Shown here: piece after piece, positions 15,270 to 53,102 of the stretch
Numbering within the stretch: the first letter of the stretch is position 1
Layout: the number at the start of each line of letters is the position of its first letter
Assembly (NCBI GenBank): GCA_044892525.1
Contig: CM097885.1
Location: forward strand, 3,536,001-3,600,000
Direction of reading: 5' to 3'
From: Schmidtea polychroa
Taxonomy: Eukaryota
DNA length: 64,000 nt
Translations under genes and position numbers: made by a program
The notes under the pieces: model-generated
The model's database searches: none
What the model was told of the DNA's origin: nothing
The model's input: the letters and a program-made list of their open reading frames with translations, nothing else

Positions 15270-15633
15270 TTATTTATTTTTTTTTTCTAATTTTACATTT
15301 ACATTATATTCTAACAAGAACGTAAATTATAACAATATTATTTCAATTTGAATAAAATTTTAATTAGTAATTATTCAATTCGAATAAAATTTTAATTAGA
15401 AATTATTTAATTTATTATAAAATAAAACGCTGAGTTAATTTTAGATAAACCGGATATTAATATTTCGGAAAAAATAAATAAATAAATAAAATAAACACGA
15501 AAATAATATTTCTTACTTGAAACTAATTATCTAAATTAATTGGACAAATGAATAATTAAATGATAAAACACATTTAAATTAACTAAGTCAAATAATTCAC
15601 AATATATATTTATTATTCACATAAATTTAATTG

Positions 15634-20758: not shown

Positions 20759-20845
20759 GCACCAAACTGAAATTGTAATTGCGCCATGTTGTAGAGAATT
20801 AAATTCTGCCTATACATGGTTACACTTAAATCTCGATCAGACCTG

Positions 20846-24261: not shown

Positions 24262-24625
24262 CAATTAAATTTATGTGAATAATAAATATATATTGTGAAT
24301 TATTTGACTTAGTTAATTTAAATGTGTTTTATCATTTAATTATTCATTTGTCCAATTAATTTAGATAATTAGTTTCAAGTAAGAAATATTATTTTCGTGT
24401 TTATTTTATTTATTTATTTATTTTTTCCGAAATATTAATATCCAGTTTATCTAAAATTAACTCAGCGTTTTATTTTATAATAAATTAAATAATTTCTAAT
24501 TAAAATTTTATTCGAATTGAATAATTACTAATTAAAATTTTATTCAAATTGAAATAATATTGTTATAATTTACGTTCTTGTTAGAATATAATGTAAATGT
24601 AAAATTAGAAAAAAAAAATAAATAA

Positions 24626-24673
<48 letters not shown>

Positions 24674-26556: not shown

Positions 26557-28830
26557 CAGGGGTGCCCATAAGGTCGATCGCGATCTACCGGTAGATAGCG
26601 AAGGATTTTTTAGTAGATCTTCATAAAAAAAATATTTTTTATATAAATTTAGATTTTATATAAAATTTCTGTTTTATGCTTAAATTTTTGTGTAACAAAG
26701 TGAAAAATTTTCTTAAGCTTTTTTGTTAAATTAATTTTGTTTAAAAATGCTAAATAAAAAAATGCTAAATAAAAAAGTCAAGACTTATCATTATAGCGAA
26801 GAAATGGAGAAGGAGTACTTTTTTGTAATGATTAAAGGTAAATGTTGTTGCTTAATTTGTAAAGCTACTATTTCATTACCAAAAAGAGGGAATTTGGAAA
26901 GGCATTTCAAGACAATTCATAAGAATTTTGCAGTTGATTTTCCAATTGACAGTGAACTACGCAATTCTAAAATCATGGAACTGAAAACATGCATTTCTTT
27001 TCAACAGTCATTTTTTACGAAGCTAACATCCAAATCAAAGTCAGCTACAGCTGCATCTTTCTGAGTAAGCTACATTCTGGCAAAAAATAAGAAATCTTTT
27101 AGTGATGGAGTAATTGTAAAAGAAGCATTTTTAGAAGCGGCAGAATCATTATTTTGTGATTTTAAAAATAAATCAGATATAATTTCTGCTATTACTGATA
27201 TGCAATTGTCCCGTAATACAGTTACACGGAGAGTCCAAGAAATAAGTACCAATTTAAAAAATCAGTCAATGTTAGACATAGGAAATTGTACCGCATTTTC
27301 ATTGCAAGCAGACGAATCAACTGATGCGGCTGATATTTCGCGGCTTATAATTTTTATTCGAATGGTCTTTAAAGATTTTTCTACGAAGGAAGAATTATTA
27401 ACAATTATACCACTCAAAAGTAAAACTCGAGGTGAGGATATATTTCAGAATTTTAAAGCTTATGCCAACAGCATTCAGCTCCAAATTTGTAAGCTTGTAT
27501 CAATAACAACAGATGGCGCACCAGCTATGACAGGGCGTCACAACGGATTTATAGCATATTGTAGGAATGATTGTGAACTCCCAGATTTTCTTTCCTACCA
27601 CTGTATTATTCATCAACAAGCCTTGTGTGCTAAAATTCTGAATATGAGAGATATTATGGAAATAACATTCAAAATTGCTAACTCGATTCGTGCAAGAAGT
27701 CTTCAGAGACGACTTTTCAAATTACAAATTGAAGAAAGTAATAGCGAAGGTCCTGCTGAATTACTGATGCATTCAGATGTAAGGTGGCTAAGTAGAGGAA
27801 AATTCTTACAAAGATTTAGAGATTTGCTTTCTGAGATTAAGTTGTTCCTTGCCGCAAGAGGTGATGAGTTCAAGCAATTGGAAGATGATGTTTGGCTCTT
27901 GGATTTGGCATTTTTAGTAGATATTACTGCAATTCCGAATGAATTAAATCTCGACTTACAAGGTAAGGATAAATTGATATTCGATATGATAAGTTCAATC
28001 AATGCATTTATACAAAAGCTTCATTTACTTATTACCAAAATAGAAGACAAAAATTTAAGATATTTTCCAAATATGTTGTCACAATTAAAAGAATCTGAAA
28101 ATGTCAACTTTAATATTACGAGATATGCGGAACAGATCAAAATTTTGGTTTTAGAGTTCGAGAGACGTTTTCAAGACTTCAAGAAACTTGAAATTGTGGC
28201 TGCATTTATGTCCTTTCCGTTTAATCCAAAAATAAAACCAGAAATTGTTGCAGATTCAATTTCAACTTTGTTTAAAATGGATATCCCTATACTTGAAATG
28301 GAAATAATCACACTTCAAAATGATATCTTCATTAAATCAAGATCTTCCGAACCAAATGTATTGAAATATCTATCAGAGGATAAATATTCAAACTTGAAAA
28401 AATGCTTCGAAAATTTAGTATCAATTTTTGCTTCAACTTATTTATGTGAGTCTGCATTTTCACATATGAAAATTATAAAGTCAAAGTACCGAGCAACATT
28501 AACAGATGACCATTTGGAATCCAGCCTAAGAAGTTGTCTTAGCACTTATATCCCAAACTACAAAAATCTAGTGGATTCAACCCAATGTAGAGCATCAACA
28601 TCGAAAAGTTCTATATAAAAATAATTTTCATTAAATTTAATTTCCTAAGTTACATTTTTTTATAATAAATAGTTATATAGTTTAATTTTCCATATTTTGA
28701 CATATATTTGTTTTATTGTGATGAATTTATTGCATTGTAGGTAAATATTATGTAAGTATTAAAAAAGTAGATCGCATACACATTTTGGATGTGAATGTAG
28801 CTCTCCTAGAAAAATTAGTGGGCACCCCTG
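26557..28830 (+). mobile_element. hAT transposon (Buster/SPIN/GTF2IRD2-like), full length
   Basis: TIR CAGGGGTGCCCA / TGGGCACCCCTG; perfect 8-bp TSD TTTTAAAG (26549-26556, 28831-28838); subterminal GTAGATC motifs. Confidence 0.95.
26747..28618 (+). pseudogene. hAT transposase with one premature TGA (27062-27064)
   Basis: BED finger CLIC...H....H; DESTD, TTDGAPAM, HCIIHQQAL, VRWLSRG, STYLCESAFS. The two ORFs are in the same frame. Confidence 0.92.
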
Positions 28831-30446: not shown

Positions 30447-32198
30447 TTATATAAGAATAAATTCAGTAAATACTGAACATGTAAATCTTACTGTATGTCG
30501 AGAAGTAGAAACCATTGATATAAGTTTATTGGAGCGGGCCTTGGTATATGGCTTTCCGTAATAAACAGGTAACTCGTTTTCATTCACACAAGTTAGCGCT
30601 AACTTAAATCTTTCAAAATTACTTCTAACACAGAAATCTTCACAACTGAAATTCTCCTTCTTAAACTTCTTTGAATATTTGAAATGTTCCCAGATCAATT
30701 GTAAAAGCCCAGCGGCTATTACTGGTAATTTCTCAGCGTTTTCAGCTTGAACGGAATTTGATCTCTCGAGATGATCTTGGTAGAAAAGGTCTGATGAAAG
30801 CAAATAGATGCATGTCTTCACCCCATTCTTTTTGACAAAAATTCTGAAATAAGTTCAATAAATATAACAATTGCATTTAGTCAGAAGGTTACTCGAGTAA
30901 ATTCTCATTTGTCTGGAGGAGATAATAAATAAATGACAAAATGGAATATATGGTATTGAGACTGAGATATTCCTCAAGGATATCTAAGTTTTTGCCGGGG
31001 GAGTCTGGATCTAAAATTCTTTTGATATCTGGCCTACTCGGAGAAGGCAGGCATTGTAACATGTGAATTAAACAATGTGTTCCGATCAGTTCTAGATTTC
31101 TTAAATCTTCGGAGAGATTTCTAAGCGTAAGGATAGCAACCTTTACTACTATATCGGGACCGTTGATTACATGCATGACAAGAGATGGAAGACCTTTTCT
31201 TTTGCGAAACTGAAAGTAATAATAATTTGAAGCAACCTCCCTATAAAATTGTTCTACTCAATTAAATTCAGTCTTGTTCCAAAATTTATTTATTAATTAC
31301 AATTTTAATTTCTCTTGTTTTTCTGAAAATTTAATCAACCAATAAATGTTAATTATTAATATTGATGTAATTATTGATCATAAATATAATTTAAGTAGTA
31401 TGTAGTAACGACTCCGGCGCACTTTCAAGGTCATGGAATATCAAGATCAAATATAGACCAATCGAATCATTTATTTTTTAAATTAACATTTTATTTTATT
31501 ACTTCTTTTTAATTTTTCTTTTTAATTTTATTAATTAATAATTTTATGTTATATTTTAATTACTTACTTTATTTAATTTTTAATTTATTACATTTAATTA
31601 ATTTATTAGTTTATTAATATTTTATTTTAATTACTTACGCTTTATTATTATTTATTTTTATTTTTATTTATTTATATATTTTTTTTAATTTATTTATTTT
31701 TTTTTAATTAATTAATTTATTTATTTTTTAATTTAAATTTTATTTAATTACTTCTATTTATTTATTTATTTATTTATTTTTTTTTCTTTTTAATTTTATT
31801 AATTAATTTTTTTTTTATGATGTTATATTGTAATTACTTACTTTAGTTAATTTTTAATTTATTACATTTAATTAATTTATTAGTTTATTAATATTTTATT
31901 TTAATAACTTACGCTTTATTATTATTTATTTTTATTTTTATTCATTTTTTTTTAAATTTTTTTTTTATTTATTTATTTTTTTTTAATTAATTAATTAATT
32001 TTTTTTTTAATTTAAATTTTATTTAATTACTTCTATTTATTTATTTATTTTTTTCTTTTTAATTTTATTAATTAATTATTTTATGATGTTACATTTTAAT
32101 TACTTACTTTAGTTTATTTTTAATTTATTACATTTAATTAATTTATTAGTTTATTAATATTTTAATTATTTTATTATGTTTTTATTTTAGTATAATTT

Positions 32199-32234
<36 letters not shown>

Positions 32235-35200
32235 TTTTTTTTTTTTTTTTTTTTTAATTTTACATTTACATTATATTCTAACAAGAGGTAAATTATAACA
32301 ATAATATTTCAATTTGAATAAAATTTTAATTAGTAATTATTCAATTTGAATAAAATTTTAATCAGAAATTATTTAATTTATTATAAAATAAAACGCTGAG
32401 TTAATTTTGGATAAACCGGATATTAATTTTTCGGAAAAAATAAATAAAATAAACACAAAAATAATATTTCTTACTTGAAACTAATTATCTAAATTAATTG
32501 GACAAATGAATAATTAAATGATAAAACACATTTTAATTAACTAAGTCAAATAATTCACAATATATATATTTTATTATTCACATAAATTTAATTGTTAAAG
32601 TGCTTGTTTCGATTTGCATTCATTTGTAGACGGAGCAGTTGCAATATGCATTTGACGAATCTTATAGTGACCGTAGGCATAGCTTTCATTAGAATTGAAC
32701 CAATACCTTTTATCATCCAAACATTGGAGAGCTCGTTTTTCGGTCATGAAAGTATACAACTGATGATTGACACTTCCTATTCTTTTTTGTGGGATGCTCA
32801 CTGTTCCACCATCAGTATACACTTTTTTATAAGCTTCATGGGTGATATTAGAATTTGTAAGACTTATTCCTTTGGCTTTTAGAGTGTTTTTATCGCCTTG
32901 GAGTGAGTAGCATTTGGGTCGAAGAAACACCCATTCTTTATATTGATTTCCTGTATTCTCATCCTTAACTTTCCCGATTACCGAACAAATTTTATCTGAG
33001 AACAATGGATCAGTCACTGGATAATTTGAAGTATCTAGGAGCCCATCTTCAATCATTTTTGGATATAGTTGTAAGCGAAAATCAACATTTTTACACTCTA
33101 AAAAGAAGGAATCTGTGTCACCGGCTACGATATTAATTTGACAATTGAATTCTTCTCTATAACTCTGTAGTTCTTTATATTGGAACTGGTTCATGCGAAG
33201 TTTAGATAAATCAAGTACGGTTTGTCCAATATACATTGGTCTATCTAAACACACCATTTCCTTATCAAGTATAACAGCAATGAGATCATCCGCAATCTTG
33301 ATGCTACGACGAAACATAGGATTACTACAATAAGTTATCAATCTTTTGCTTTTGCTGCATAATCTCAAATTTATACGTTTCTTCAAGTTTTCCACGGTTT
33401 TACCGTATAAACTGTTGTTCTTTAACTTATAATAATCTCGCTGAAACGAATCCGTACTAGCTGCTCTCATTTTGGTATTGTAATCAATATAGCCTTTGAA
33501 AATAGCCACTTGCTTGAATTCTACAGCACGATTAACTTTTGTGACCTTTGCGCCGTAACTCAACCACTCTGTCAAAACTCTACCATTAACTACATAGTTT
33601 TTCTTAGGCTCATGAGTTAACAACAGCTTTTCAATTTTACTACCAGGCGGATATAAAAGCTCAGGAGCTATAGGTAAATCATCTAGTTTATCTTGTATAC
33701 TATCAGGAATGACGATGTCAACCTCTAGAACATATCCACGATCTCCATCAAACTCATCCCCATTTGCACATCTTTCAACAATACCATTCATTTCAGTCTG
33801 ATCTTCTAACCATCTAAATTCCCCAACAGGAAGTTTTTGCGACAGCGCCCATCCATATAAATTATTAACATCTAAGTATGACATTTGTGTTGATTCATCA
33901 GCTTCAACATGATGTTTGTTGATAAATGTCATTCCACCACGAATACCAGCTTCAAATAAACGGTAAAGCTCTGGATCTTGAATAAGTTCTACCGGTTCAG
34001 GTAACTGTTTAATAGCTGATGCCCAACTTAATCCGGGTATGGAAACAAACGATAAAGCCTCAAGTCCATCTTCGTCAAATGTTTTTTCTCTGAAAGCTTC
34101 AAAAACATCGGCCAACAGAAAAACATCCAGCTTGAGATATACTAGCATGTAATCTAGCAGTGTCTCACAGTTGTATTGTTGCCAGATTCGATTTGCATGT
34201 ATATAATCTTCTTCACTAACTCCCTCCCAAATCAGTGGTAATTCTGTTATTGACTGTAAAGCATCCATTGATGTAGCCATATCATAAGGAAAAATGGTTT
34301 TACAAGTCATCATCTGTGATTCGAAAACATCTGAGGTCAGTGGAAGACATGGTAAATTTTTTGATAAATTTGCCAAGCTGCTATTTAAAAATTGTAAAGA
34401 ATCAATGAATCTAATTCTTTTGCCTTTCGATGTCGCTGTAAGTGTGAGAAACTTTTCTGTTGATTGAGGAATAACATTTAAATTCCAATCGGGGAATTTT
34501 GCAATTGCATATTTTAATATATGATGAAAGTCATATCCACGAAGATTGTGAAATACAACAGGTAAAGACGGATTGATTCTTCTAGCCAAGTTGCAATGTT
34601 GACATGCTGCTCCGAGATATTGACCAGTAAAATGATCATGATCTCGAACAGGTATATTGATAATCTTTTTACAAAGGTAGCAATGAGTTTGATTCGTAAA
34701 TTCTTCCTGCTGTTCCCAAGTGAGTTCCATCATTTCCTTCGATCCATTAATTTTATACCACGGATAAACTATGTCTGTAGCTATATCATCCAATGCTTGT
34801 ATGAACTGAATGATACAGCTTTTCCCAACAAATGTTTATTTCGGATCGGACAACCTTGATGAAGAAGCACAAATTCAGATGCAATCGGCTCATGTTTTTG
34901 GAAGTGTTTGTCATCTAGAGGTAATATCGATTCAAAGTCCGCGTAGACAACAAACTGCTGTTTTATAGTTTTACTCCAGTCTTTAAATTCGATATATTTA
35001 TTCTCTGGCATTGAGTATAGAGTCGTCCGCTCCACATTCTTCCTACAAAGACCTATATGTCTTTCAAAAGCAGGACGTTTTTGAAACCCATGAAGACATG
35101 TATGACACCAATGTGATTGGATTCTGACTCCTTCTACTCTATCTCTGTAATTCAGCAGTATATCGAGATTAGTTACAGCCAAAAAATGATAATTTAATTC

Positions 35201-38200
35201 TAAAATTTAGTTAATATTTTTAATGATTAAAAGAAATATTACCTTCTTCAATCAATAGGAGATATATCTAAGATCCCGTCGAAGTACTTCTATATACCAA
35301 GTCAACGAACGGATTCTTGAAAATATCATTAGTTTTTTGTTTAATTGGATCTTTATTATATTTGAGAACATTGATCGCTAGATTTGGATTCATTGCTTCG
35401 AATTGGCAAATGTTAACCAACTTCATCGGAAACCATTCAAATTTCCATTTTAAGTCTTAAAAACAAATTTCAATGATTTATGACATTATATATATATATA
35501 TTACCACTTAAGTTATATTTTGTTGTTCTTTCTCTATCCCGACGTATGTCATCATAATGTAATACGGCCAGTATGCTATATAAAAAGCAGAATTGATCAT
35601 TATTTTGAACATTAACTAAAGCCTGGCAGTTTTTCAGGTAATTTGGCGTTTTAATGTAACATGAACCTAAGTAAATATCTAGATTTATATATATAATAAT
35701 GTAAATAAACTTACCAGATACATGTATTATGTCTGATAATTTAGTTAAAATCATAGTAACTTCTAATATTTTATGAATTCTCCACCCACTACTTTGTTGA
35801 GTGTATTTCTCCAACTTTTCTTTTAATTTTTCAATTCCATCATTAATAAATGAAGATGACATTGTAATTGCTTTATTTGACAAACACCATTTTTTAATTT
35901 CACCATCCTCTTTGATAAACTCTGCACAAAGTCCAAATTGGATTTTTACTGTACCCATTCGTTGAATATGATCTTCTATTTCTTTGATGAGACAATCTGG
36001 AACAACAATGTCAGGAGAATTAATTGCAGATACATCGCTTGTCAATTCAACACGAGAACCATTTAAGTCAGACTCCCGACGTGGACACAATTGTATGTTA
36101 GAGTCTCCATTTCCGTAAAATATTGACTTTCGTTTTGTGGTGCCAGAGTTTTGTCTAACTATATTTATAATTAATATTAAACAACTTAAATAACATAACT
36201 TGTAACATATTCTTTAATCTGCTTAGGATCGTATGATGTATTCATTTTCGATTGTACTATAAAAAATTAATAATTGTTAATAGTAGAAAGAGTATTACTT
36301 TTAGTGATCATCCTGCTCTTCGTTTCTTCGAATCTTCTAAGATGGTGTCCGTGTTGTCGTACAAACATTAACCACCTACCTGGTGATATAATGAGACATT
36401 CCGGACATATGTAACCCGATAAGGTAGAGTCATTTATCTTGAAATATGATGATGTAACTGATTTACAGTTCTCCACATCTTCATGACTTTCGGCAATACA
36501 AAATTTATATAAACTGCATCCGTTCACTAAAAGAAAATAATCATTAATATTAGATAGAGAATAAAAAATTATTCACTTATATAAGTTAAATTAAAAGTTT
36601 AAATGACAAACATTTGAAAAGTTACTGCTTATATATTACACATGATTACATTCTGACCAATCAAAATCAAGGAAGGAGTAGGAAAAATAAATATATTCTG
36701 ACCAATCAAAATCATGGAAGGGGTAGGAAAAATAAATGCATTACGTTGCAGTATTTTAAAACTTCAATATATTTTAAAACACATTTTAATGTTAAATTTG
36801 ACTTATTCAACATTTTTATAATAATTTAATAAAAAATAATGCGATGAACCCACAAAGTAATATCATTTTTCATCAAATTGCAAAACAGTAATAACGTTTT
36901 CATAAAATTGTAACAAAGTAATAACATATTTCAGATAAATTTTCAACAGTTGTAAAATATTTAAGCAAATTGTAACAAGATTAGAAAATATTACAACAAA
37001 GTAGTAACATATTTCAGAAAATTTCAACAAAGTTGTAAAATATTTATCAAATTGTAACTAAAATAATAAAAATATTGCAACAAAGTAATAAAATGATGAT
37101 GTTAATTGGGACAAATCAATACATTATTTCGAAGACGGACAACAAATTAAAAAAGAATATTGTAATAAATTGTGAAGTCTTTCAGTAAATTACAACAAAG
37201 TAATAACATATTTCGGAAATATTTCACCAGATGTAAAATATTTAAGCAAATTGTTATAAGATTATAAAAATATTGCAACAAAGTAATAAAATAATACAAC
37301 ATTTTAAACTCTAGATCAATCCATTTTATAGAAAATTAAATTTTATCTCTATAATATACAAGGAAATTACGTTAACTGTAAGAAAAATACAAATTTATCG
37401 TAAAAACATGTATGTATTACACACAACATACGAGAAATAATTTTTAATCTTAATTTTATAGAAAATTAAATTTTATCTTTATAATATATGAATAAATATA
37501 CAAGGAAATTACGTTAACTGTATGAAAAATACAAATTTATCGTAAAAATATGTGTGTGTGTATTACACACAACATACGAGACATAATTTTTAATCAAGCT
37601 ATTTTATAGAAAATTAAATTTTATCTATATAATATATGAATAAATATACAAGGAAATTACGTTAACTGTATGAAAAATACAAATTTATCGTAAAAATATG
37701 TGTGTGTGTATTACACACAACATACGAGACATAATTTTTAATCAAGCTATTTTATAGAAAATTAAATTTTATCTATATAATATATGAATAAATATACAAG
37801 GAAATTACGTTAACTGTATAAAAAATACAAATTTATCATAAAAACATGTGTGTATTACACACAAAACAAGATACATAATTTCTAATCAATCCATTTAATA
37901 GAAAATTAAATTTTATCTCTATAATATATGAATAAAATCCTAAGAACATTACGTTAACTATATGAAAAATACAAATTTATCGTAAAAACATGTGTGTATT
38001 ACACACAACATACGAGACATAAATTTTAATCAAGCTATTTTATAGAAAATTAAATTTTATCTATATATATTATATGAATAAAATCCTAAGAAAACTTTGA
38101 TTGGTCAGAATATATTTATTTTTCCTACTCCTTCCTTGATTTTGATTGGTCAGAATGTAATCATGTGTAATATATAAGCAGTAACTTTTCAAATGTTTGT

Positions 38201-41200
38201 CATTTAAACTTTTAATTTAACTTATATAAGTGAATAATTTTTTATTCTCTATCTAATATTAATGATTATTTTCTTTTAGTGAACGGATGCAGTTTATATA
38301 AATTTTGTATTGCCGAAAGTCATGAAGATGTGGAGAACTGTAAATCAGTTACATCATCATATTTCAAGATAAATGACTCTACCTTATCGGGTTACATATG
38401 TCCGGAATGTCTCATTATATCACCAGGTAGGTGGTTAATGTTTGTACGACAACACGGACACCATCTTAGAAGATTCGAAGAAACGAAGAGCAGGATGATC
38501 ACTAAAAGTAATACTCTTTCTACTATTAACAATTATTAATTTTTTATAGTACAATCGAAAATGAATACATCATACGATCCTAAGCAGATTAAAGAATATG
38601 TTACAAGTTATGTTATTTAAGTTGTTTAATATTAATTATAAATATAGTTAGACAAAACTCTGGCACCACAAAACGAAAGTCAATATTTTACGGAAATGGA
38701 GACTCTAACATACAATTGTGTCCACGTCGGGAGTCTGACTTAAATGGTTCTCGTGTTGAATTGACAAGCGATGTATCTGCAATTAATTCTCCTGACATTG
38801 TTGTTCCAGATTGTCTCATCAAAGAAATAGAAGATCATATTCAACGAATGGGTACAGTAAAAATCCAATTTGGACTTTGTGCAGAGTTTATCAAAGAGGA
38901 TGGTGAAATTAAAAAATGGTGTTTGTCGAATAAAGCAATTACAATGTCATCTTCATTTATTAATGATGGATTGAAAAATTAAAAGAAAAGTTGGAGAAAT
39001 ACACTCAACAAAGTAGTGGGTGGAGAATTCATAAAATATTAGAAGTTACTATGATTTTAACTAAATTATCAGACATAATACATGTATCTGGTAAGTTTAC
39101 TTACATTATTATATATATAAATCTAGATATTTACTTAGGTTCATGTTACATTAAAACGCCAAATTACCTGAAAAACTGCCAGGCTTTAGTTAATGTTCAA
39201 AATAATGATCGATTCTGCTTTTTATATAGAATACTGGCCGTATTACATTATGATGACATACGTCGGGATAGAGAAAGAACAACAAAATATAACTTAAGTG
39301 GTAATATATATATATATAATGTCATAAATCATTGAAATTTGTTTTTAAGACTTAAAATGGAAATTTGAATGGTTTCCGATGAAGTTGGTTAACATTTGCC
39401 AATTCGAAGCAATGAATCCAAATCTAGCGATCAATGTTCTCAAATATAATAAAGATCCAATTAAACAAAAAACTAATGATATTTTCAAGAATCCGTTCGT
39501 TGACTTGGTATATAGAAGTACTTCGACGGGATCTCAAATATATCTCTTATTGATTGAAGAAGGTAATATTTCCATTAATCATTAAAATATTAACTAAATT
39601 TTAGAATTAAATTATCATTTTTTGGCTGTAAGTAATCTCGATATACTGCTGAATTACAGAGATAGAGTAGAAGGAGTCAGAATCCAATCACATTGGTGTC
39701 ATACATGTCTTCATGGGTTTCAAAAACGTCCTGCTTTTGAAAGACATATAGGTCTTTGTAGGAAGAATGTGGAGCGGACGACTCTATACTCAATGCCAGA
39801 GAATAAATATATCGAATTTAAAGACTGGAGTAAAACTATAAAACAGCAGTTTGTTGTCTACGCGGACTTTGAATCGATATTACCTCTAGATGACAAGCAC
39901 TTCCAAAAACATGAGCCGATTGCATCTGAATTTGTGCTTCTTCATCAAGGTTGTCCGATTCGAAATGAAACATTTGTTGGGAAAAACTGTATCATTCAGT
40001 TTATACAAGCATTGAATGATATAGCTACAGACATAGTTTATCCGTGGTATAAAATTAATGGATCGAAGGAAATGATGGAACTCACTTGGGAACAGCAGGA
40101 AGAATTTACGAATCAAACTCATTGCTACCTTTGTAAAAAGATTATCAATATACCTGTTCGAGATCATGATCATTTTACTGGTCAATATCTCGGAGCAGCA
40201 TGTCAACATTGCAACTTGGCTAGAAGAATCAATCCGTCTTTACCTGTTGTATTTCACAATCTTCGTGGATATGACTTTCATCATATATTAAAATATGCAA
40301 TTGCAAAATTCCCCGATTGGAATTTAAATGTTATTCCTCAATCAACAGAAAAGTTTCTCACACTTACAGCGACATCGAAAGGCAAAAGAATTAGATTCAT
40401 TGATTCTTTACAATTTTTAAATAGCAGCTTGGCAAATTTATCAAAAAATTTACCATGTCTTCCACTGACCTCAGATGTTTTCGAATCACAGATGATGACT
40501 TGTAAAACCATTTTTCCTTATGATATGGCTACATCAATGGATGCTTTACAGTCAATAACAGAATTACCACTGATTTGGGAGGGAGTTAGTGAAGAAGATT
40601 ATATACATGCAAATCGAATCTGGCAACAATACAACTGTGAGACACTGCTAGATTACATGCTAGTATATCTCAAGCTGGATGTTTTTCTGTTGGCCGATGT
40701 TTTTGAAGCTTTCAGAGAAAAAACATTTGACGAAGATGGACTTGAGGCTTTATCGTTTGTTTCCATACCCGGATTAAGTTGGGCATCAGCTATTAAACAG
40801 TTACCTGAACCGGTAGAACTTATTCAAGATCCAGAGCTTTACCGTTTATTTGAAGCTGGTATTCGTGGTGGAATGACATTTATCAACAAACATCATGTTG
40901 AAGCTGATGAATCAACACAAATGTCATACCTAGATGTTAATAATTTATATGGATGGGCGCTGTCGCAAAAACTTCCTGTTGGGGAATTTAGATGGTTAGA
41001 AGATCAGACTGAAATGAATGGTATTGTTGAAAGATGTGCAAATGGGGATGAGTTTGATGGAGATCGTGGATATGTTCTAGAGGTTGACATCGTCATTCCT
41101 GATAGTATACAAGATAAACTAGATGATTTACCTATAGCTCCTGAGCTTTTATATCCGCCTGGTAGTAAAATTGAAAAGCTGTTGTTAACTCATGAGCCTA

Positions 41201-42465
41201 AGAAAAACTATGTAGTTAATGGTAGAGTTTTGACAGAGTTGTTGAGTTACGGCGCAAAGGTCACAAAAGTTAATCGTGCTGTAGAATTCAAGCAAGTGGC
41301 TATTTTCAAAGGATATATTTATTACAATACCAAAATGAGAGCAGCTAGTACGGATTCGTTTCAGCGAGATTATTATAAGTTAAAGAACAACAGTTTATAC
41401 GGTAAAACTGTGGAAAACTTGAAGAAACGTATAAATTTGAGATTATGCAGCAAAGCAAAAGATTGATAACTTATTGTAGTAATCCTATGTTTCGTCGTAG
41501 CATCAAGATTGCGGATGATCTCATTGCTGTTATACTTGATAAGGAAATGGTGTGTTTAGATAGACCAATGTATATTGGACAAACCGTACTTGATTTATCT
41601 AAACTTCGCATGTACCAGTTTCAATATAAAGAACTACAGAGTTACAGAGAAGAATTCAATTGTCAAATTAATATCGTAGCCGGTGACACAGATTCCTTTT
41701 TTTTAGAGTGTAAAAATGTTGATTTACGCTTACAACTATATCCAAAAATGATTGAAGATGGGCTCCTAGATACTTCAAATTATCCAGTGACTGATTCATT
41801 GTTGTCAGATAAAATTTGTTCGGATCGGGAAAGTTAAGGATGAGAATAAAGGAAATCAATATAAAGAATGGGTGTTTCTTCGACCCAAATGCTACTCACT
41901 CCAAGGCGATAAAAACACTCTAAAAGCCAAAGGAATAAGTCTTACAAATTCTAATATCACCCATGAAGCTTATAAAAAAGTGTATACTGATGGTGGAACA
42001 GTGAGCATCCAACAAAAGAGAATAGGAAGTGTTAATCATCAGTTGTATACTTTCATTACAGAAAAACGAGCTCTCCAATGTTTGGATGATAAAAGATATT
42101 GGTTCAATTCTAATGAAAGCTATGCCTACGGTCACTATAAGATTCGTCAAATGCATATTGCAACTGCTCCGTCTACAAATGAATGCAAATCGAAACAAGC
42201 ACTTTAACAATTAAATTTATGTGAATAATAAAATATATATTGTGAATTATTTTTGTGTTTATTTTATTTATTTTTTCCGAAAAATTAATATCCGGTTTAT
42301 CCAAAATTAACTCAGCGTTTTATTTTATAATAAATTAAATAATTTCTAATTAAAATTTTATTCAAATTGAAATATTATTGTTATAATTTACCTCTTGTTA
42401 GAATATAATGTAAATGTAAAATTAAAAAAAATAAAAAAATAAAAACAATAAAAAATAAAAATAAA

Positions 42466-42498
<33 letters not shown>

Positions 42499-45400
42499 AA
42501 ATAATACTAAAATAAAAACATAATAAAATAATTAAAATATTAATAAACTAATAAATTAATTAAATGTATAAATTAAAAATTAAGTAAAGTAAGTAATTAA
42601 AATATAACATCATAAAATAATTAATTAATAAAATTAAAAAGAAAAAAAAATAAATAAATAGAAGTAATTAAATAAAATTTAAATTAAAAAAAAATTAATT
42701 AATTAATTAAAAAATAAATGAATAAAAATAAAAATAAATAATAATAAAGCGTAAGTAATTAAAATAAAATATAAATAAACTAATAAATTAATTAAATGTA
42801 ATAAATTAAAAATTAACTAAAGTAAGTAATTACAATATAACATCATAAAAAAAAATTAATTAATAAAATTAAAAAGAAAAAAAAAATAAATAAATAAATA
42901 AATAAATAAAAGTAATTATATAAAATTTAAATTAAAAAATAAATAAATTAATTAAAAAAAAAATAAATAAATTAAAAAAAATAAATAAATAAATAAAAAT
43001 AAAAATAAATAATAATAAAGCGTAAGTAATTAAAATAAAATATTAATAAAATAAAAAAGAAAAATTAAAAAGAAGTAATTAAATAAAATGTTAATTTAAA
43101 AAATAAATGATTCGATTGGTCTATATTTGATCTTGATATTCCATGACCTTGAAAGTGCGCTGGAGTCCTTACTTCATACTACTAATTTAATATAGATTTT
43201 AATCTACAAATTTAACATTAACAGATACTTCAATTAACTGATCACCTTTATAACATTTAAACTATATTATTATTAAATAGGATTTTGGAAGTTCCTAAGA
43301 AAATGGTGTTACTGCTTTTAAAGACTATAAAAATAGGTATCACTTTGGCACTCTATTGATTCATAGACACATTGTTTATTTACAACCGATTTATTCCGCA
43401 AATTATTTTTTTGATATCTCGCCAATTCAGAGAAGGCTGGCATTGTAACATGTGAATTAGACCATGTATTATCATCAGTTATTTAATTCAGTTATTTAGA
43501 AACTTTTCCAGTTGAAAACTGTTGAAATATCATTCAATCATATCCTTCTATGAAGATATTCTATGACCAAAATTCTTTATTAAAATAAATTACACGTTTT
43601 TAATGAAACTATAAAATCCTATAAAAAATGATTGAGTACAAAGTTTTCTATTAATTTTTCTATTTAAATATTTTCCATTCAAAATAATTACATCTATTTT
43701 TAATTGAGATCACATCAATAAGTGAATAAACTTAATTAATTAACATTAAAAATAAACTTAATGCCATTAATATGTATGTGTGCATGCCTCAAATAGTACA
43801 AACATTTCTCTGCTTATGACAGATTGAATTTGGAAATGGTGTTTCATTACTATTGTAAATGATATGATAGAAACAAGAATTAATTATGATTTATATAATT
43901 TCTCGTAATTCACTTTAATGTTTAAGATATAGATAACTTTTGACTTACTTATAGTTAAATGCCTTTTTCATTAAATTTATTGTGTGAAAATTCATTGTAA
44001 AAACTCACATTTACTCTAAATTCTTCTGCAAGCTTTAATTTACAACACGCTAAATTCTGGACCGTCCCAATTGCCGCTTCAATTGATAAATAGTTCTTGG
44101 AGAAATTTATAATCTCCAGTAACAAGTCTATCATTTCTGAATTCCACAACAGCATTTGGCCTCCAATATCCATCTGGCGGGGATTTGAAACATTAATTTG
44201 GTCCCTATTATTTTTTTTAGTTTTTTTGTTGAATGAGTATTGATGATTGGATTGAAAGCTTTCATGGATGGAATAGCAGAGATTACGAATAGTACAAATA
44301 CAACTCTCTACGATCCTATTGTTGAACGCTTCTGTATTGAATGAGAACTGTATAATAGATGTAACGGAATCTAATAGCCCTTCACACATTCTCATAGATT
44401 GGCGAGTTTCATTAGGTCCACTGCTCATGTTCCTATTAAAATGTGAGCAATTCCTTCATTTATAGTAAAAATAATACTTTAAGAATGAGGTGACAAATTC
44501 CAATAGCGGTCCGTATGTGATAGTCAGGTCCGCTATCTTGAATAGGCTTATTCTGTTAGTTAGAGGGTCTACTATCATACCTAAGCTGGGCAATAATACA
44601 AAATGGACAAGTGTTGATATGCAACTGTGGGAAAGGACTATATGAAATAAAGTACAGCTGGAAAGATTGCATAAAATTGCAGCCAGATATTCGATAAATC
44701 TTGTCATATAACTAGAGTTTGATTCCATTTGACTCTCAATTATTTCAACTATTCTTTCTTTTCCCAATTCTTTCTAAAAATATATCGCATTAATATATAA
44801 TAAAAATTAGATTTACATCTTTCACAATTTATCACTGATCGGTCACTTAGTTAAAGGTTTCTTTCAATATCCTAAGTTGATTCACCAGGGGAGGGGGACT
44901 ACAATAATGGTTTATGACTTTTTATAACTTACAAGATTTGGTGGCACAAAAAGTCAAATAAAGTTTTACAGTAATTAGTAATGTTTGTACAGATGTATTA
45001 AATATTATTAAGGTGAAATGTTTATACATAATTATGTAAATAAAATATACTGATAAAGAGACAACAATAATATTACTTGCATCGATAATTAGACATTCAT
45101 TCACAAAATCAAGCGGCAAATTAAAAAGCTTATAAACAAAGAAAATAAATTGAATAATTTGAGATGACAAATATTAAGTTAATAAATTTGATAAATTTTA
45201 TTAGATAAAATATTAAAATAATAAAGTAGATAGAAATATAATTTTATAACATTGTCGAAAGATAAGAAAAAATCAAAGTCATCTAAAGATTTTTAAAAAG
45301 TTTAAAATGTTTAAAATAACGTATGAAATGCAAAGCCGAAAACAGGAAAACACATTAAAAAAACATCTCCCAAACGCTGTTGGACTAGATGGAGCGAGTT

Positions 45401-45878
45401 TTGATTGTATCCATTTAAATTAACTACAAATTCAATATTCAAACATTTACTATTATTTACAATATTCAAACAAGAGAATTATTTTACGCCAACAATATCT
45501 TAAACAAGAAAACATGAGACACTTCATTTTACTATCTGTCTATTAATTTAAATTATATAATTATATTATAAATATTTTACATTAAAATTGTTAATACAAT
45601 ATTTACAATTATTATTTACATAACATACATATTAAATTATACACTAATTAATACACAATATTTAAATTTTTTAATTAATTAAAAACGCTACTTTTGTTTA
45701 CCACTTTCAAATTCAAATTTATTTTAAAATTTTATTGTATATTTTTTCCTCAAATTATTGATCTGTTAAACGCGTAGTTCAATTTCAAAATTCGCACGCC
45801 TTATGCGTTGTATGTCCAAGGTCTTGACCTTTATACATGTCAAACGCAAGATATATACATTTATTACATTTTTGCAGA

Positions 45879-45930
<52 letters not shown>

Positions 45931-48882
45931 CGAGCGCAACAATTTTAAGTTTTGAAAGGACGTTGAACGTTTTTATTTTATTATTTCCCCTAAAACATCC
46001 TGCAAATCACGTGTTCTAGCAATTTGAAGGAATTTTCGGCAAATATTTTTTGTGGATTTTAAAGATTTTGAAACGTTACCATTATCAATGACCAGTTCTG
46101 GATCTAGTTCTATCTGTTCTATAATGATACAAGATCGGTTTGGAAATATTGGCTCCCGAATCAATCTTTTAATTTACATGAAATGACACCAAATGACAAA
46201 TGGTTTAGAGTACCAGACGGGCCTGATTGCATGATTACCATAAAAAACAAAAAACTACTCTCGAAGAGAAAATAATTATGAAACAAATTAAATTTTATGA
46301 ATAACCTTAATTTGAATATTGGGTCCATAGGACATGTTCCGGATCACGCCAGCAGCATTGAGTTGGACCAGTCGCTGAGAAGAGTTGAGAAACGGTAAGA
46401 TCAGAGGAATTCCATTTTTAAGTCTGAAAAAAATAGTAGATATGATAAAAATGTTATAAAGTTTAACAAATAGATAGCCTATTTCTTGCTAATATAAAAT
46501 CGAATGAAATAGAGAAAATGATGCAATTGGTATGAAGAGAATGACATGACATGAAAGTATGGAGATAGAAATCATATTTCAGAGCAAGAATTTTCTTTAT
46601 TTTGTCAATTTTCTTTATCTTATCTTTGATAATTCTTTTCTAGATAGAATGGTTACATTTTCTGCACCTACTTGCACTAACCTGCGACAGAGTCCTTCTT
46701 TTAGATGAATTACTGACAGACAGGTATGCAAGTTTTTCATCGAACCGCTGCCATTCAGTATGCTTTCTATGAAGGTCTTTTTTGTGTGAACAGAGCTGAA
46801 CTCCGTCCATTTTAGTAACATTGAAGATTTTTCCGCGGTCTTTCATAAAACCTCATAAGAATATTTCATGAGCATGAATTATGTCAAAAAACTGATGATA
46901 TTTTGCTGTTAAAAACTATGGACGAATTCTGGTTACAAAAAATTAAAACAAAGGTTATCATTAATTAAGAAGTACAAAGAGGAACAGGAATTCCAAATTC
47001 CAAAAAAAGCAGCTTGATACAGATATCGGAATTGCTAGAAAAGTCGGCAAAAAAGAGATAAAACAAGGCATATCTCGACATCTGTCAGAGATAAGACGGG
47101 AACAGTGGAAAATGCGGAAATAAGAAAAAAATGGAAAACAAAATTATCTCAAGTACCGCAAATGTAAGCTATAAAAGGGAAAAACACAGAAATCAGCAGG
47201 AGTGGAAAACGGAGTTCAATCAGAATTACAGGAGAGAATTCAGAAATATTTAATTGAGGGTAACGAGAATCTTTGGAAAAATCTAATATAAAAGTAGAAG
47301 TAGAGTAAATAATTTGTTGTCAAAGCAAATAAAGCAATCGATTAATGTATCCTGTTAGTGAGTCCGTCGATGACTAGAGATTATTGTTATTATTATACAC
47401 CTAGAGATATTCTTTACGTAAGTGTCGCAAAAAGCTCTGTATAATTCTCTTTTTTAGAGTTAATTGCTTTTTGCAACTTGTACAATCTGTTGTGAATATT
47501 AATAAAGCTTTATCTTGTTCGAGATTGTTAACTTGTGAATCGATAAACCATGCTTGGAGTCCGAGATGGGATTGTTGAATTTAGACGTTATCACTAATCA
47601 ATTAACCCAACAGAATTTATGTTTTAACTGGGCAATCTGTAAATATTTATATATGATTGAATTTCAGAACTCAAAATTTGTGAGAGATTATAATATATTG
47701 ATTATAGTATAAATATCATATTTTATTATTACAATAATGATTTTGATTTATTTTCAAAATAAGTTTTTTGAATGTTTTTATTGGTAGATTTTGGACCAAT
47801 CGGTTGAGATAAAATCGATCTAATCAAAAGTTTAGTTGACACGCTTGACAATAAACAATTAATTTCTAACTTATTAATCCAAGCATTCAATATACAAGTA
47901 AACAATATAAAATATATATTTATATCTTTATGGACTTTTATTATCATAAATATAAACGAATTCTAGTTCAAATTATAAAATGGAAGTTAATAAAATTATT
48001 TAGTTAATTATTTTTTTCATTTATTTTAAACAAATATTTCTATTAATTAATTGCAAAATATTTGTTTTATAGCTATTGTTAAACTGTGAGTAACAAAATT
48101 CCCAATTTATAAATCGCGGGTATCCTGTACCCTTATCAAAGGTGAGAAATTTTGAGTAAATGCCATACAAATCTTGGACATCCAGAATTAAAATGATGTA
48201 TCCTGCCAGCCTGAGAACATTGAGTACCTTGAAGCTCTTATGGATACAATGTTACTATGTCTGTTACCCTATGTTCTTCTATTGGATATCAGCTTGAGAG
48301 GGAAATAATAGAGCATAAGTCTTACACACCGAGGGTCTGAGGTGGATTAAAAAGACAGATTTTACTCTTTAGTTTAAACTTTTTAAATATATGAATGAAA
48401 TTATAAAGACTGACTTTATCGGCCTTTACATCTTATTAAATGCCTTTCATAAATAATGATCATTGAAAAATTCTTTGTTAAAAAAAACCGAAAGAAGAAA
48501 CATGACAAACTTTTTGACAAAACGATTAATAATATTTCAATAAAATGAAGAACTCTAATATATAAAAGCGCCGCTGAAAAGACGGAACGAACGAATCATA
48601 TTTGCTCAATTATCAACCACATCAAACAGAATTAGTAAATAAGTTTATTTAAAGTAAACAAATGTAATTGCTATTCAAAAATAGAGTAAACAAATATTTA
48701 TCTCAACACAAATGTTACCTGATTATCTCTTTGACGTTTTCGTCTTCAAAAGTAATGTGTTGAAGAAAGGCCAGCGCATTCAATTGGATATCAACATTTT
48801 CCGTTGCCAAAAGGTCGAACAGTTCAGGAATTCCTGGCTCGAGATTCGAAGGTTGCGTCATTCCATCGGTGGATGACCACAT
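30447..48882 (-). CDS. Host p120/delta-catenin-family armadillo-repeat gene (multi-exon, model incomplete)
   Basis: Exons: ~48882-48719 (IPELFDLL...NALAFLQHITF), 44773-44478 (AAILCNLSS), 44432-44009 (NMSS...RMCEGLLD...VESCICTIRNL...EAAIGTVQNLA), 31209-30893 (RKRKGLPSLV...LRNLSEDLRNLELIG), 30843-30447. The phase-compatible GT-AG introns between the last four are 45, 12799 and 49 nt. Exons between 48719 and 44773 were not resolved. Confidence 0.82.
32595..36577 (-). pseudogene. Spliced pPolB, arm B-left (TAG at 35268-35270; 1-nt deletion near 34838)
   Basis: Same motifs and introns as the other arms; uninterrupted 732-aa C-terminal ORF. Confidence 0.92.
36850..37290. repeat. Degenerate ~85-bp repeats in the element core (also at about 19890-20330)
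   Basis: Recurrent ACAAAGTAATAACATATTTCAG...TTGTAAAATATTT. Confidence 0.7.
37320..38095. repeat. About 5 copies of a 130-148 bp tandem repeat with internal palindromes
   Basis: TAGAAAATTAAATTTTATC recurs near 37329, 37459, 37607, 37755, 37899 and 38043; TGTGTGTATTACACACA or a variant is present in each full unit. Confidence 0.92.
38096..38205 (+). promoter_or_regulatory. Pol II promoter of pPolB: two CCAAT boxes, TATA box, initiator (mirrored in the left arms at about 36600-36710 and 19640-19750)
   Basis: ATTGG at 38100 and 38145 in a 45-bp direct repeat; TATATAAG at 38171-38178; TCATT at 38200, about 30 nt downstream of the TATA box. Confidence 0.7.
38229..42207 (+). pseudogene. Spliced pPolB, arm B-right (deletions of 1, 1 and 2 nt near 38971, 41452, 41825)
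   Basis: Introns 38230-38279, 38508-38549, 38607-38647, 39091-39138, 39301-39349, 39563-39604; AATAAA about 20 nt after the stop. Confidence 0.92.
45884..45927. repeat. (AT)n microsatellite
   Basis: Directly visible. Confidence 0.9.
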
Positions 48883-49080
48883 TTTACTTCTACAATCATT
48901 TACAGATTTGGATCAGTTTTCATTAATACCAAATCATTTAATTTTTTGAATCTGTTACTTAATTTATATGATCCGCCTTTGAGGTTTGTTATCAGTATGA
49001 TATTTTCACGCATCAATGACAAAGCATCACAATTCTTACACACCACAAATAACCAATCAATACTTTAATATAGATTTTTA

Positions 49081-49350
<270 letters not shown>

Positions 49351-49574
49351 AATTTTATTAAAGTAAACCAAAAAATAATAAGAAAATTATTTAAAATAAT
49401 AAGAAACATACTTGAAAAATATTTGCCCTGAAAATCCAAAAATTGAAATTTAAAAAATTTCCTGGAAATGGAAATAAGAGAAATTTCTAAATTGAGATTT
49501 GATTGGTGGAATGTTATTGACATTTTTGAGGTCACAAATACAGTTGGGATATTTCTTACAATACCGCATATTGA

Positions 49575-49778
<204 letters not shown>

Positions 49779-50414
49779 GAGTTTTCAATTAAATTAATAT
49801 TAAATTCGGTGTTTTAGACTTCACGTGTTTTATAAAAACAATTAGTTAACCAACACTCAACTTATATTTGTATGCGAATTATTACAATCTACAATTAACA
49901 AAACTCCGAATATCGCAATAACATGTCTACAATAATAATCATCGCTTTTCTTTAATCCTTGGACTCAACTTTATCCTTTATTTTTGTTCGTTCTAGCAGA
50001 GCCAAATGCCGATTGTTCCTAAGTTTTAGTTCCTTTATATAGTAAGAATATAGTCATATTCAAAAAGAACTATTATATGAAATATTTTAAAATTTCTTCA
50101 TATTTGGGCACATTTTAATATTTTATCAGTTTTGTCAGGTCCCAACGGAGAGAAAGATGTAAATGAACTATGTAAAAAAATTTTTAATTTAAGTTTAGCA
50201 GCAAATAGGTTTGAGGAGAGATGTTAAGGAATATTTTTAAATGACCCCTTTAACCATATTTGGCTGTAATTCCAACACATTATCCATCTGCTTTCTAGGG
50301 ATGTCGACAGTTCCCTTTCATAAAGCTCCTTTCATATGGAAAACAATATGATAAAATAATACAAAAATCATCAAATCTTTTTATTATTAAGGCAAAACAT
50401 AATGAAATTAATTA

Positions 50415-51932
50415 TCATTGTCTCTCTTCAAAGATTAAATTACTTTCTAGACAACTTCGGATAACCCCATCATTTCCACGAAGAATCTCTTGATATCTTA
50501 TTTCTGTCATTTCCTCAGCAAATTTAACTTTAAATCTTTGAAGGATACTGGAGAAAAAAATGAAATACTCCATTCTTGCAAGCGATTCTCCCAAACATTG
50601 CCGTTTACCGATTCCAAATGGGATCAAATCTTCCCGTGGGCAATACTTCATTGAGTTGTTATCATCTGCCGATAGAAAATGATTGGGAAAGAATTCAGAA
50701 GGATTACTCCAAACTTCTGGATCGTAATGGCATGCATATAAGTTAGGAAATATTAGAGTATCCTTCGGGACGAAATATTCTTTGACAGAACTATCAAACA
50801 TGGCTCTATGAAATGATCCTAAGGGAGTTACGGAACTCATTCTTAGTACTTCATCCATAACTGCTTGAGTATAGTCCATATTTTTTCTATCATTCATGCT
50901 TGGTAGTTTCTCTTTTCCAATTACGTTCACGATTTCGTTGTAAACCTTTTCTTGAATACCTTGATGTTGACTCATGAACATTAAACTCCAAACAAGAGTT
51001 GTCGAGGTAGTTTCAAACCCAGCAACTAACATTTCCAAAGAATTCCTTATCAATTGCCATTCCGTAAAGGTGTCAACTGAACCTGTTCTTCCCATAACCT
51101 TTTTCTGTTCTAATAAAAATCTATCAATCATATCCTCTCCATCGCTATTCAAATCTAACAATGTTTGATGATTCACTATTTCCTCCTTGAAGCTATCGTG
51201 AATCTTTTCAAACATTTTCAGGTGAGCTTTCAGTCTCAAAATGATATTGAAAATGATTGAGGAATTCTCGAAGCATGGAAAGATCAAGTAGAAAATCGTG
51301 ATAACATCAAGCTTTTTCACTGATTCCACGAGTACATTTTCGATCAGTTTGATTTTTGGATCCTCACGACAAAATCTTTTATTCATGATAAATTTCGAAA
51401 TGATATTTAAAGTGTAAATGGGGATTAAATGAGAGAAATTTACTCTCTTCCCGGTCAACTGTTTGATTTCGTCGAGGCAATTTTCACATTCAAGTTGAAC
51501 TATTTCCGATGTTTTGGATCTTCCATAATCTCTTAAAACCTTTTGTACAAATGCGCGTTGCTTTGCCCAAACCTCTCCATCTTTTAAAAATATTCCCGAA
51601 TCATGAGTCAAAGCTTTGACCAGGTATGTTGACCATCTTCCAGAAAATGCAGTTCCGTCAAATTTGAAGGTCTGCTTGAGAATTTCATAAGAATTGAACA
51701 CTAGAATCTCTCGAAATCCTAGTTTAATTCGATAAACAGGTCCATAGGTTTTACTGAGGTCCTTTAGATAACTATGCATAGGCAATTTGATATCAAACAA
51801 ACTGCCAACGAAAGGAAGACCTTTAACAAGGGGTGCCTGATTTCGAACACCAATTCTTTGGTGAGTTCGCCAATATTTACCGAAATAATACACAATTAAA
51901 ATGACACAAATCGAAGATAAAATCAGAATCAT
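50415..51932 (-). CDS. Cytochrome P450, CYP2-clan-like, intronless
   Basis: N-terminal TM anchor, GLPFVGSL, W...R (WAKQR), I-helix AGFETTSTT, EVLR, heme motif FGIGKRQCLG; first in-frame ATG at 51932. Confidence 0.95.
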   Translation of the reverse strand: MILILSSICVILIVYYFGKYWRTHQRIGVRNQAPLVKGLPFVGSLFDIKLPMHSYLKDLSKTYGPVYRIKLGFREILVFNSYEILKQTFKFDGTAFSGRWSTYLVKALTHDSGIFLKDGEVWAKQRAFVQKVLRDYGRSKTSEIVQLECENCLDEIKQLTGKRVNFSHLIPIYTLNIISKFIMNKRFCREDPKIKLIENVLVESVKKLDVITIFYLIFPCFENSSIIFNIILRLKAHLKMFEKIHDSFKEEIVNHQTLLDLNSDGEDMIDRFLLEQKKVMGRTGSVDTFTEWQLIRNSLEMLVAGFETTSTTLVWSLMFMSQHQGIQEKVYNEIVNVIGKEKLPSMNDRKNMDYTQAVMDEVLRMSSVTPLGSFHRAMFDSSVKEYFVPKDTLIFPNLYACHYDPEVWSNPSEFFPNHFLSADDNNSMKYCPREDLIPFGIGKRQCLGESLARMEYFIFFSSILQRFKVKFAEEMTEIRYQEILRGNDGVIRSCLESNLIFEERQ

Positions 51933-52054
51933 TAGTAAATTAAAAATAAACAAATTCAAGTTTCGATTTTATTTTAACTACATTTCAATGACAACAGCCC
52001 ATTTGCACATTATTCTGCACATGTCACAATAAGTTAATCAATATTTTTATATAG

Positions 52055-53102
<1,048 letters not shown>

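Follow-up and report, generated by a model that had tools for sequence, protein, structure and literature searches.

The 64,000-nucleotide (nt) stretch of the Schmidtea polychroa genome analysed here (contig CM097885.1 of assembly GCA_044892525.1, positions 3,536,001 to 3,600,000 of the forward strand; hereafter the window) harbours a palindromic, Polinton-related element, element B, each arm of which carries a gene for a virus-type DNA polymerase. Six short segments beginning with GT and ending with AG interrupt the 5′ part of this gene, and they are very probably spliceosomal introns in a gene still under selection. The reading we favour, with a probability of about 0.85, is that a selected, six-intron, host-spliced polymerase gene lies in each arm of an integrase-less palindromic derivative of a Polinton. 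Confidence is not the same for all six segments. The last three, I4 to I6, are almost certainly introns; at I2 and I3 splicing in one form or another is highly likely; and I1 is likely to be an intron.

The gene was studied in the right arm of element B (B-right, plus strand; coordinates are those of the window), where the part read at 38229-39624 is the 5′ end of a polymerase gene whose long last frame starts with 39598-41466. Exon 1 ends at 38229 with the A of a split start codon, A|TG, and joining gives ATG in 18 of 18 copies compared. It is followed by I1 (38230-38279, 50 nt), placed by sequence reading and copy comparison, and by exon 2 (38280-38507, 228 nt), which encodes an N-terminal Cys/His motif (C..C..SH..C, CPxC, H..H) recognised from relatives, including the metagenome genomic contig L103. 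The next intron, I2 (38508-38549, 42 nt), agrees in position and phase with the first intron of L103. Exon 3 (38550-38606) is a micro-exon of 57 nt, invariant among copies and the least certain of the exons, and I3 (38607-38647, 41 nt) was placed in the same way as I1. Exon 4 (38648-39090) has 443 nt here vs 444 nt in copies with an open frame, with a frame break near 38969. I4 (39091-39138, 48 nt) stands at the start of an OTU-like domain, where relatives have a 16-residue gap, and exon 5 (39139-39300, 162 nt) contains the Cys box of that domain, NNDRFCFLY, as judged from relatives. I5 (39301-39349, 49 nt) ranges from 45 to 101 nt in other copies, and exon 6 (39350-39562, 213 nt) is supported by relatives and copies. 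I6 (39563-39604, 42 nt) contains two in-frame stops and lies just before an invariant His, at a gap of about 14 residues in relatives. Exon 7 (39605-42207), defined by Pfam matches and copies, encodes a zinc finger, an HNH-like module and the PF03175 polymerase; it measures 2603 nt here and 2606 nt in open copies, and in B-right its frame is broken near 41453 and 41823.

The exon lengths in open copies (1+228+57+444+162+213+2606 = 3711 nt) place every intron in phase 1 and make exons 2 to 6 multiples of three. A first inspection of this DNA (the original prediction) had proposed six GT-AG introns of 50, 42, 41, 48, 49 and 42 nt, all in phase 1, and both the coordinates and the exon lengths agree with it. 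It had also placed the introns in the N-terminal third and none in the exonuclease and polymerase core; indeed, all six fall within the first 369 of 1236 codons, and the last exon is uninterrupted. By eye, the 3′ ends of the introns are T-rich. Since an A precedes I1 and TG opens exon 2, the start codon is present only once the two are joined, and the first Met of the unspliced frame falls behind the conserved CPxC motif. A TATA-like box, TATATAAG, at 38171-38178 (plus strand), about 50 nt ahead of the I1 donor, is a candidate promoter. The 79 nt up to the end of exon 1 are the least variable part among copies, with 3 variable columns.

The genome (781 Mb) contains many copies of the gene at 96-100% protein identity. 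The set of 18 used for comparison consists of 15 further full-length genomic copies and the three full-length arms found in the window. The GT and AG dinucleotides are intact in 108 of 108 cases over these copies. The lengths of the introns vary (50-51 nt for I1, 41-42 for I2, 41 for I3, 46-53 for I4, 45-101 for I5 and 42-43 for I6), and the variants of 48 vs 50, 49 vs 47 and 42 vs 43 nt noticed earlier are present among the copies. Fourteen indel events were counted in 272 intron nt vs 7 in 3707 exon nt, and 13 of the 14 in introns are not a multiple of three.

When the six segments are removed, 12 of the 18 copies are open without any repair over 3711 nt (1236 codons and a stop). The same length of 3711 nt, or 1236 amino acids (aa), had been predicted for the window arms after repair of small indels. 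It holds for these 12 genomic copies, whereas the unrepaired window arms measure 3707, 3709 and 3710 nt. The remaining six copies, including the three window arms, have frame breaks or a premature stop. Open copies differ from one another in the length of I4, I5 and I6, and I5 alone occurs among them with 45, 49, 50, 53, 61 and 96 nt. Retention of I2, I3, I5 or I6 singly leads to a premature stop in 12 of 12 open copies; retained I4 leaves the frame open in 10 of them and breaks it in the two with an I4 of 46 nt.

The spliced frame evolves under purifying selection: comparison of the 12 open copies (66 pairs) gives a dN/dS of 0.24 overall, 0.25 in exons 1 to 6 and 0.23 in the last exon, and variable sites at codon positions 1, 2 and 3 number 50, 40 and 109. 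The third-position excess is found in exons 2, 4, 5, 6 and 7. Together, these values indicate that the spliced frame was read as protein while the family diversified. As a separate observation, 25 of the 162 nt of exon 5 are variable sites when the 12 copies are compared, about three times the density of other exons, and the intron adjoining it, I5, is the most length-variable of the six.

Relatives of the polymerase are mostly uninterrupted where the last three introns lie, so that I4 to I6 look like private gains; among the sequences compared, they were found solely in the palindromic family. In P0001-P0007, long relatives without interruption (45-55% identity), the alignment has a 16-residue gap at I4 and one of about 14 residues at I6, and it switches frame at the I5 site. 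The three conserved segments that splicing had been predicted to restore are therefore real. Across 125 relatives compared, 40 of the 53 that span the I4 site have at least 13 gap columns there, and 61 of 68 have at least 10 gap columns at I6. At I5 the flanking segments abut within -6 to 16 residues in 49 of 53. The minority that span a site without such a gap or junction look like alignment slippage beside insertions, as in P0006. In most homologues that cover the sites, gaps or abutting ends stand in place of the segments. Many related full-length polymerases come from short contigs (3.8-4.6 kb), which in size approach a single arm or the predicted mRNA and may be collapsed palindromes or cDNA. 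Because they could be cDNA, relatives in genomic DNA weigh more. A second polymerase lineage of the same genome (L033 and L034, genomic DNA) is uninterrupted at I4, I5 and I6, as are the polymerase of a neighbouring Polinton in the window and the metagenome contigs L036 and L103. Other Polinton polymerases of the same genome are uninterrupted from the N-terminal motif or the linker onward. One candidate for a shared I6, L086, was rejected, as its 31 intron-like bases and in-frame stop before the I6 site were too little sequence.

In a tree of 45 rows the family is sister to P0140 (support 98/88), which crosses the I6 site in one aligned segment. Both belong to a clade of 14 rows with unresolved branching, together with L036/P0126 and L103. 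Among the closest relatives P0123, P0125, P0130 and P0140, three proteins start with the first Met beyond the I6 site, and an intron at that place would make I6 older than a gain within the family. In contig L103, which is about 49% identical to the polymerase of the palindromic family, a 238-nt exon beginning with ATG is followed by two micro-exons (87 and 60 nt), separated and flanked by three introns (52, 44 and 52 nt). Each of these introns starts with GT, ends with AG and is in phase 1, and without them 659 codons are open. Over its whole length the first coding exon of L103 can be aligned with exon 2 (E 2e-9), both ending at an aligned Lys, which makes I2 common to the two genes in position and phase. 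Counted from an aligned Asn, the Met of L103 stands one to two codons upstream, at the place of the joined A|TG. L103 is thus independent support for a split N-terminal part and for a Met at the joined A|TG, and I2 is either older or recurrent. Similar to the palindromic family, L103 has short phase-1 introns in its N-terminal part, including the I2 site; unlike the family, it is uninterrupted at I4 to I6. The proposal of long nuclear residence with intron gain consequently fits I4 to I6, where most covering relatives are uninterrupted, and does not extend to I2, which is shared with L103.

The last exon matches PF03175 (DNA_pol_B_2) with E 2.5e-31 and 109.5 bits, against a cutoff of 25.8, and a weak Endonuclease_7/HNH-like Pfam match was found in the long last frame. 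The best named relative is an adintovirus PolB from a dragonfly, at 35% identity. Searches of the N-terminal part by sequence gave little: Pfam had no match to its domains at E values up to 1, a profile of 25 relatives against PDB sequences returned chance-level rows only (phi29 polymerase at E ~1), and an Atlas search of the N-terminus found unnamed clusters only. A structure model was obtained for the homologous N-terminus of the neighbouring Polinton polymerase (450 aa; pLDDT 88-97 over residues 230-400). Foldseek on this model gave no row at E <=0.001. Residues 229-361 of the model match OTU deubiquitinases (Z 7.0-7.5, rmsd 3.2-3.6 Å over 96-108 residues), and 25 of 50 structure-match rows have OTU in their title. 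Residues 95-224 (P0241, window ~10155-10542, minus strand) match the little-finger domain of Y-family polymerases (Z 6.3-8.0, 10 of 50 rows).

The Cys in NNDxxCF and the His in HY do not vary in alignments of 25 and of 30 relatives; the Cys is encoded in exon 5 and the His at the start of exon 7, and both are putative catalytic residues. Mapped through the neighbouring protein, I4 coincides with the beginning of the OTU fold, I5 interrupts the fold and I6 immediately precedes the invariant His. The N-terminal part may thus hold an OTU-like protease domain, and some portion of it may have a priming role. The suggestion that this region is a terminal protein is not supported by the model, which matches the OTU fold at 229-361 and the little finger at 95-224.

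Several observations weigh against a functional, spliced gene or against parts of its description. The three full-length arms in the window are all broken, and hence the very copies in which the introns were found are not functional. Nucleotide diversity is lower in the introns (0.011) than in the exons (0.016), contrary to the simple prediction for neutral introns. L036/P0126, of the same clade as the family, lacks N-terminal introns, so that the history of I2 requires a loss or a second gain. Exon 3 and I1 draw on frame logic and one relative only, and the OTU fold was read from a neighbouring paralogue of about 25% identity, with middling Z scores. The sequencing runs speak neither for nor against splicing. 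The runs compared were three only guessed to be RNA (no run is recorded as RNA) and X5, whose kind is not on record, as DNA comparison. Contigs from the guessed-RNA runs cross I1 and I3 (X1) and I2 and I3 (X4) unspliced, and none of the joints listed for these runs coincides with an intron border. Should the runs be RNA, they would attest unspliced transcripts; given the high DNA depth, carry-over of genomic DNA is an equal reading.

Two further points came from the same runs. X4, labelled as a different organism (B), yielded a 711-nt contig with 2 differences over window 38269-38970, and the family, with I2 and I3, is accordingly also present under a second organism label. Programmed DNA elimination was considered and dropped, none of the joints listed in X5 being at intron borders.

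The alternative that survives best keeps I4 to I6 as they are and supposes that the 5′ part is processed in another way: by a single 140-nt intron (38508-38647) that skips exon 3, by another first exon, or by leader trans-splicing at the acceptor 38279/38280. We regard it as unlikely. The 57 nt of exon 3 have no variable site among the 12 open copies and hence no codon-position signal, and skipping this exon would be neutral for the frame, as the exons are multiples of three. Moreover, the start codon is made only by joining, and the N-terminal linker cannot be aligned between relatives. On the other side, the corresponding part of L103 is split into micro-exons of 87 and 60 nt behind a first intron at the I2 site, an A precedes I1 and TG opens exon 2 in all 18 copies, and the Met of L103 coincides with the joined ATG.

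It is improbable that the introns share phase 1 in order to allow regulated skipping of exons or retention of introns, with N-terminal isoforms of the polymerase as the product. The original prediction had pointed out that exons 2 to 6 can be skipped in frame. The arithmetic holds, since their lengths are multiples of three, and retention of I4 likewise leaves 10 of 12 open copies in frame. However, a transcript lacking exon 5 would lose the invariant Cys box and one lacking exon 6 the strand ahead of the invariant His, putative catalytic parts of the OTU-like domain, and the introns of L103 are also all in phase 1. The latter indicates that uniform phase 1 belongs to a wider set of these polymerase genes, and it would fit a bias in the origin or persistence of introns, for instance for a purine at codon position 1 before GT. 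The view that the gene is dead, its six segments being small insertions in a non-coding master copy that spread as a gene-less non-autonomous element, can draw on the broken window arms, on the missing spliced joint among the joints listed and on the GeneWise-type 'introns' of degraded vertebrate Mavericks, which PMC8097293 describes as insertions, but it is highly implausible given 12 of 18 copies open over 1236 codons, dN/dS of 0.24 with a third-position excess in exons 2, 4, 5, 6 and 7, GT and AG at the ends of each segment in each copy, and open copies that differ in I5 length (45-96 nt).

Element B, which carries the studied gene, spans 31394-43183 as a whole palindrome of 11,790 bp with 5′-AG..CT-3′ ends, flanked by the duplication AATTTA at 31388-31393 and 43184-43189. 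Its arms are about 5.1-5.3 kb long and its spacer 1385 nt. Arm comparison delimits the left arm (B-left, 31394-36710, minus strand), with the same polymerase gene and one frame break, the non-palindromic central spacer (36711-38095), which is shared at 91% with the spacer of element A, and B-right (38096-43183, plus strand). The 3′ non-coding part of B-right (42208-43183, plus strand) consists of a unique stretch, an A-rich low-complexity stretch and the terminus ...GGAGTCCTTACT.CATACTACT, and has lost about 88 nt directly behind 42252. At 36898-38094 the spacer contains ~95-nt repeats and some five tandem copies of a 144-nt repeat, which adjoin the putative promoter of B-right; the same arrangement occurs in element A. 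The A-rich stretch (42400-43106) resembles simple repeats at 11077-11283, 49079-49800, 52028-53100 and 60145-60408, one such repeat being located beside the end of the neighbouring Polinton.

Element A (14961-24931) is a second member of the family in the window, with 9,971 bp and the 6-bp duplication ATGGTA. Its left arm is full length yet broken, and its right arm is cut at the 5′ side. In place of the inner part of that right arm, 1.56 kb of unrelated DNA were found (20818-22376), including an open reading frame (ORF) of 296 aa at 20846-21736 (minus strand) without a Pfam match.

The ends of the elements read ...GGAGTCCTTACTACATACTACT, which corresponds to 5′-AG..CT-3′, and perfect 6-bp target duplications (ATGGTA, AATTTA and AGCAGG) flank three of three complete elements. 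Copy number was assessed from the termini, the 17,238 first-look candidates having been rejected as a count. Terminus matches in the genome number 260 in forward and 261 in reverse orientation, with 0 and 0 for the control, and they are arranged as (-,+) pairs 3.4-13 kb apart. These numbers suggest that several hundred copies of the element are present. The inner ends are variable, one arm often being cut at the 5′ side. Two unusual arrangements were observed. At G000:C4:56334000-56343900 (L029) lies a palindrome without a spacer, both arms of which are 5′-cut and joined at locus position 4768. The region G000:C1:178674475-178694196 has at least six polymerase copies on one strand, four of them spaced exactly 3448 nt, and is a tandem array of a shortened copy, not a palindrome.

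Genes for integrase, capsid, packaging ATPase and protease were not detected in elements A and B among ORFs of at least 120 aa searched with Pfam. In element B such ORFs are pieces of the polymerase only, and element A adds just the 296-aa ORF. Elements of 10-12 kb also leave no space for capsid, ATPase and protease genes. The lack of an integrase, together with the AG..CT ends and the 6-bp duplications, identifies the family as a non-autonomous derivative of Polintons/Mavericks.

Similar to the PolB of adintoviruses and Polintons, the polymerase of the palindromic family has a PF03175 domain with an HNH-like insert and a Cys/His box, and the model of its homologue in the neighbouring Polinton matches an OTU-like fold. 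The match agrees with Starrett et al. 2021 (PMC8502044), where a PolB with an OTU-like N-terminal domain and a pfam03175 polymerase is described for Alpha adintoviruses. The 6-bp target duplication, the AG..CT ends and the inverted termini are also shared with Polintons. Unlike those elements, the palindromic element lacks integrase, capsid, ATPase and protease, its gene has six introns, and its terminal inverted repeat of about 5 kb contains the whole polymerase gene. Intact vertebrate Mavericks, according to Barreat & Katzourakis 2021 (PMC8097293), have eight conserved intronless ORFs, with no introns observed, and a target duplication of 6 bp. On that basis, the family resembles vertebrate Mavericks in its terminal inverted repeats, 6-bp duplications and pPolB core gene, and differs from them in the six introns of this core gene.

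Introns in integrated viral elements are reported elsewhere. In dinoflagellates, introners occur in a quarter of the integrated viral elements surveyed, mostly eupolintovirus-like elements or giant double-stranded DNA viruses, as stated in PMC12166617. The palindromic family has in common with these the presence of spliceosomal introns within Polinton-like integrated elements, carried along as the elements multiply. Those introners are copies of intron-generating transposons in protists; the introns described here occur in an animal host and interrupt the polymerase gene itself. In nematode Mavericks, bioRxiv 10.1101/2022.07.12.499685 treats introns as a mark of host-derived cargo, set apart from core genes. 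The nematode elements, too, are animal Maverick-type elements with an intron-bearing gene, but there that gene is cargo, whereas in the palindromic family it is a core gene. An intron-split Polinton polymerase in an animal was not found in the literature, of which the key Polinton part was incompletely covered.

Under the favoured reading of a host-spliced polymerase gene in an integrase-less palindrome, the gene, present once per arm, would be read outward from a promoter beside the central spacer and transcribed by the RNA polymerase II of the host. The host spliceosome would remove the six GT-AG introns of 41-50 nt, the first splice creating the A|TG start. The resulting mRNA would encode a protein of 1236 residues with a Cys/His motif, little-finger-like, OTU-like Cys-His and zinc/HNH-like modules, and exonuclease and polymerase domains. 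Copying of the element would be assisted by its own polymerase, and insertion, with 6-bp target duplications, would be carried out by an integrase supplied in trans by autonomous Polintons. I4 to I6 would have been gained within the family, whose relative L103 would share I2 with it, as well as the tendency to carry phase-1 introns in the N-terminal part. With six introns, including one that splits the start codon, expression would be achieved only via the host nucleus and spliceosome; a lineage with this dependence would live as a nuclear transposon and not as a virus replicating on its own terms.

More tentatively, the family could be a polymerase-only satellite of Polintons, in which the replication gene is selected in two inverted copies and integration is borrowed, a virus gene has turned into a split nuclear gene, and I4 to I6 arose while the family multiplied. 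If true, it would provide a dated natural series for the origin of short animal introns and for their landing in phase 1, as well as indirect support for a polymerase acting on the DNA that encodes it and for an integrase able to act in trans. With uninterrupted relatives in the same genome and a partly split relative elsewhere, the family allows intron gains in an animal to be located on a tree. Two polymerase genes alone between Polinton-type ends also bear on which Polinton functions must be encoded by the element and which are supplied from elsewhere.

The neighbouring Polinton spans position 32 to about 11674 of the window. In its integrase ORF (32-1381, plus strand), an rve core (E 8e-12) is joined to a phospholipase A2-like domain of the parvovirus type, PF08398 (E 5e-9), and the same pair of families is listed for the coral protein P0021, which is among the polymerase matches. 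The polymerase of this Polinton (6654-10826, minus strand) forms a single frame of about 1390 codons that contains two in-frame stops. The original prediction had described it as intron-free, which stands for I4 to I6. Its start is a different matter: no ATG was found before the first CPxC motif, nor a fitting upstream donor, and the missing ATG suggests that an upstream exon or a leader intron may be needed. The apparent end at 11660-11674 reads ...TATATACACACTACT, with the terminal letters ...CACACTACT, and resembles the ...CATACTACT of the palindromic family. Judging from these letters, the similar ends could reflect a shared integrase.

An armadillo gene with matches to catenin delta-1 and plakophilins lies at about 43955-48912 (minus strand); a second search of PDB matched designed repeat proteins only, and a homologue search was empty. 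The sizes of the polymerase introns had been likened to introns of 45 and 49 nt in this host catenin gene. These could not be defined, and one junction read gave a 41-nt, out-of-frame GT..AG candidate. The window further contains an intron-free cytochrome P450 gene at 50415-51968 (minus strand), and, beside the elements, two hAT-like transposase ORFs at 27065-28618 and 54110-55714 (both plus strand) with weak matches to DUF4371 and the hAT dimerisation domain.

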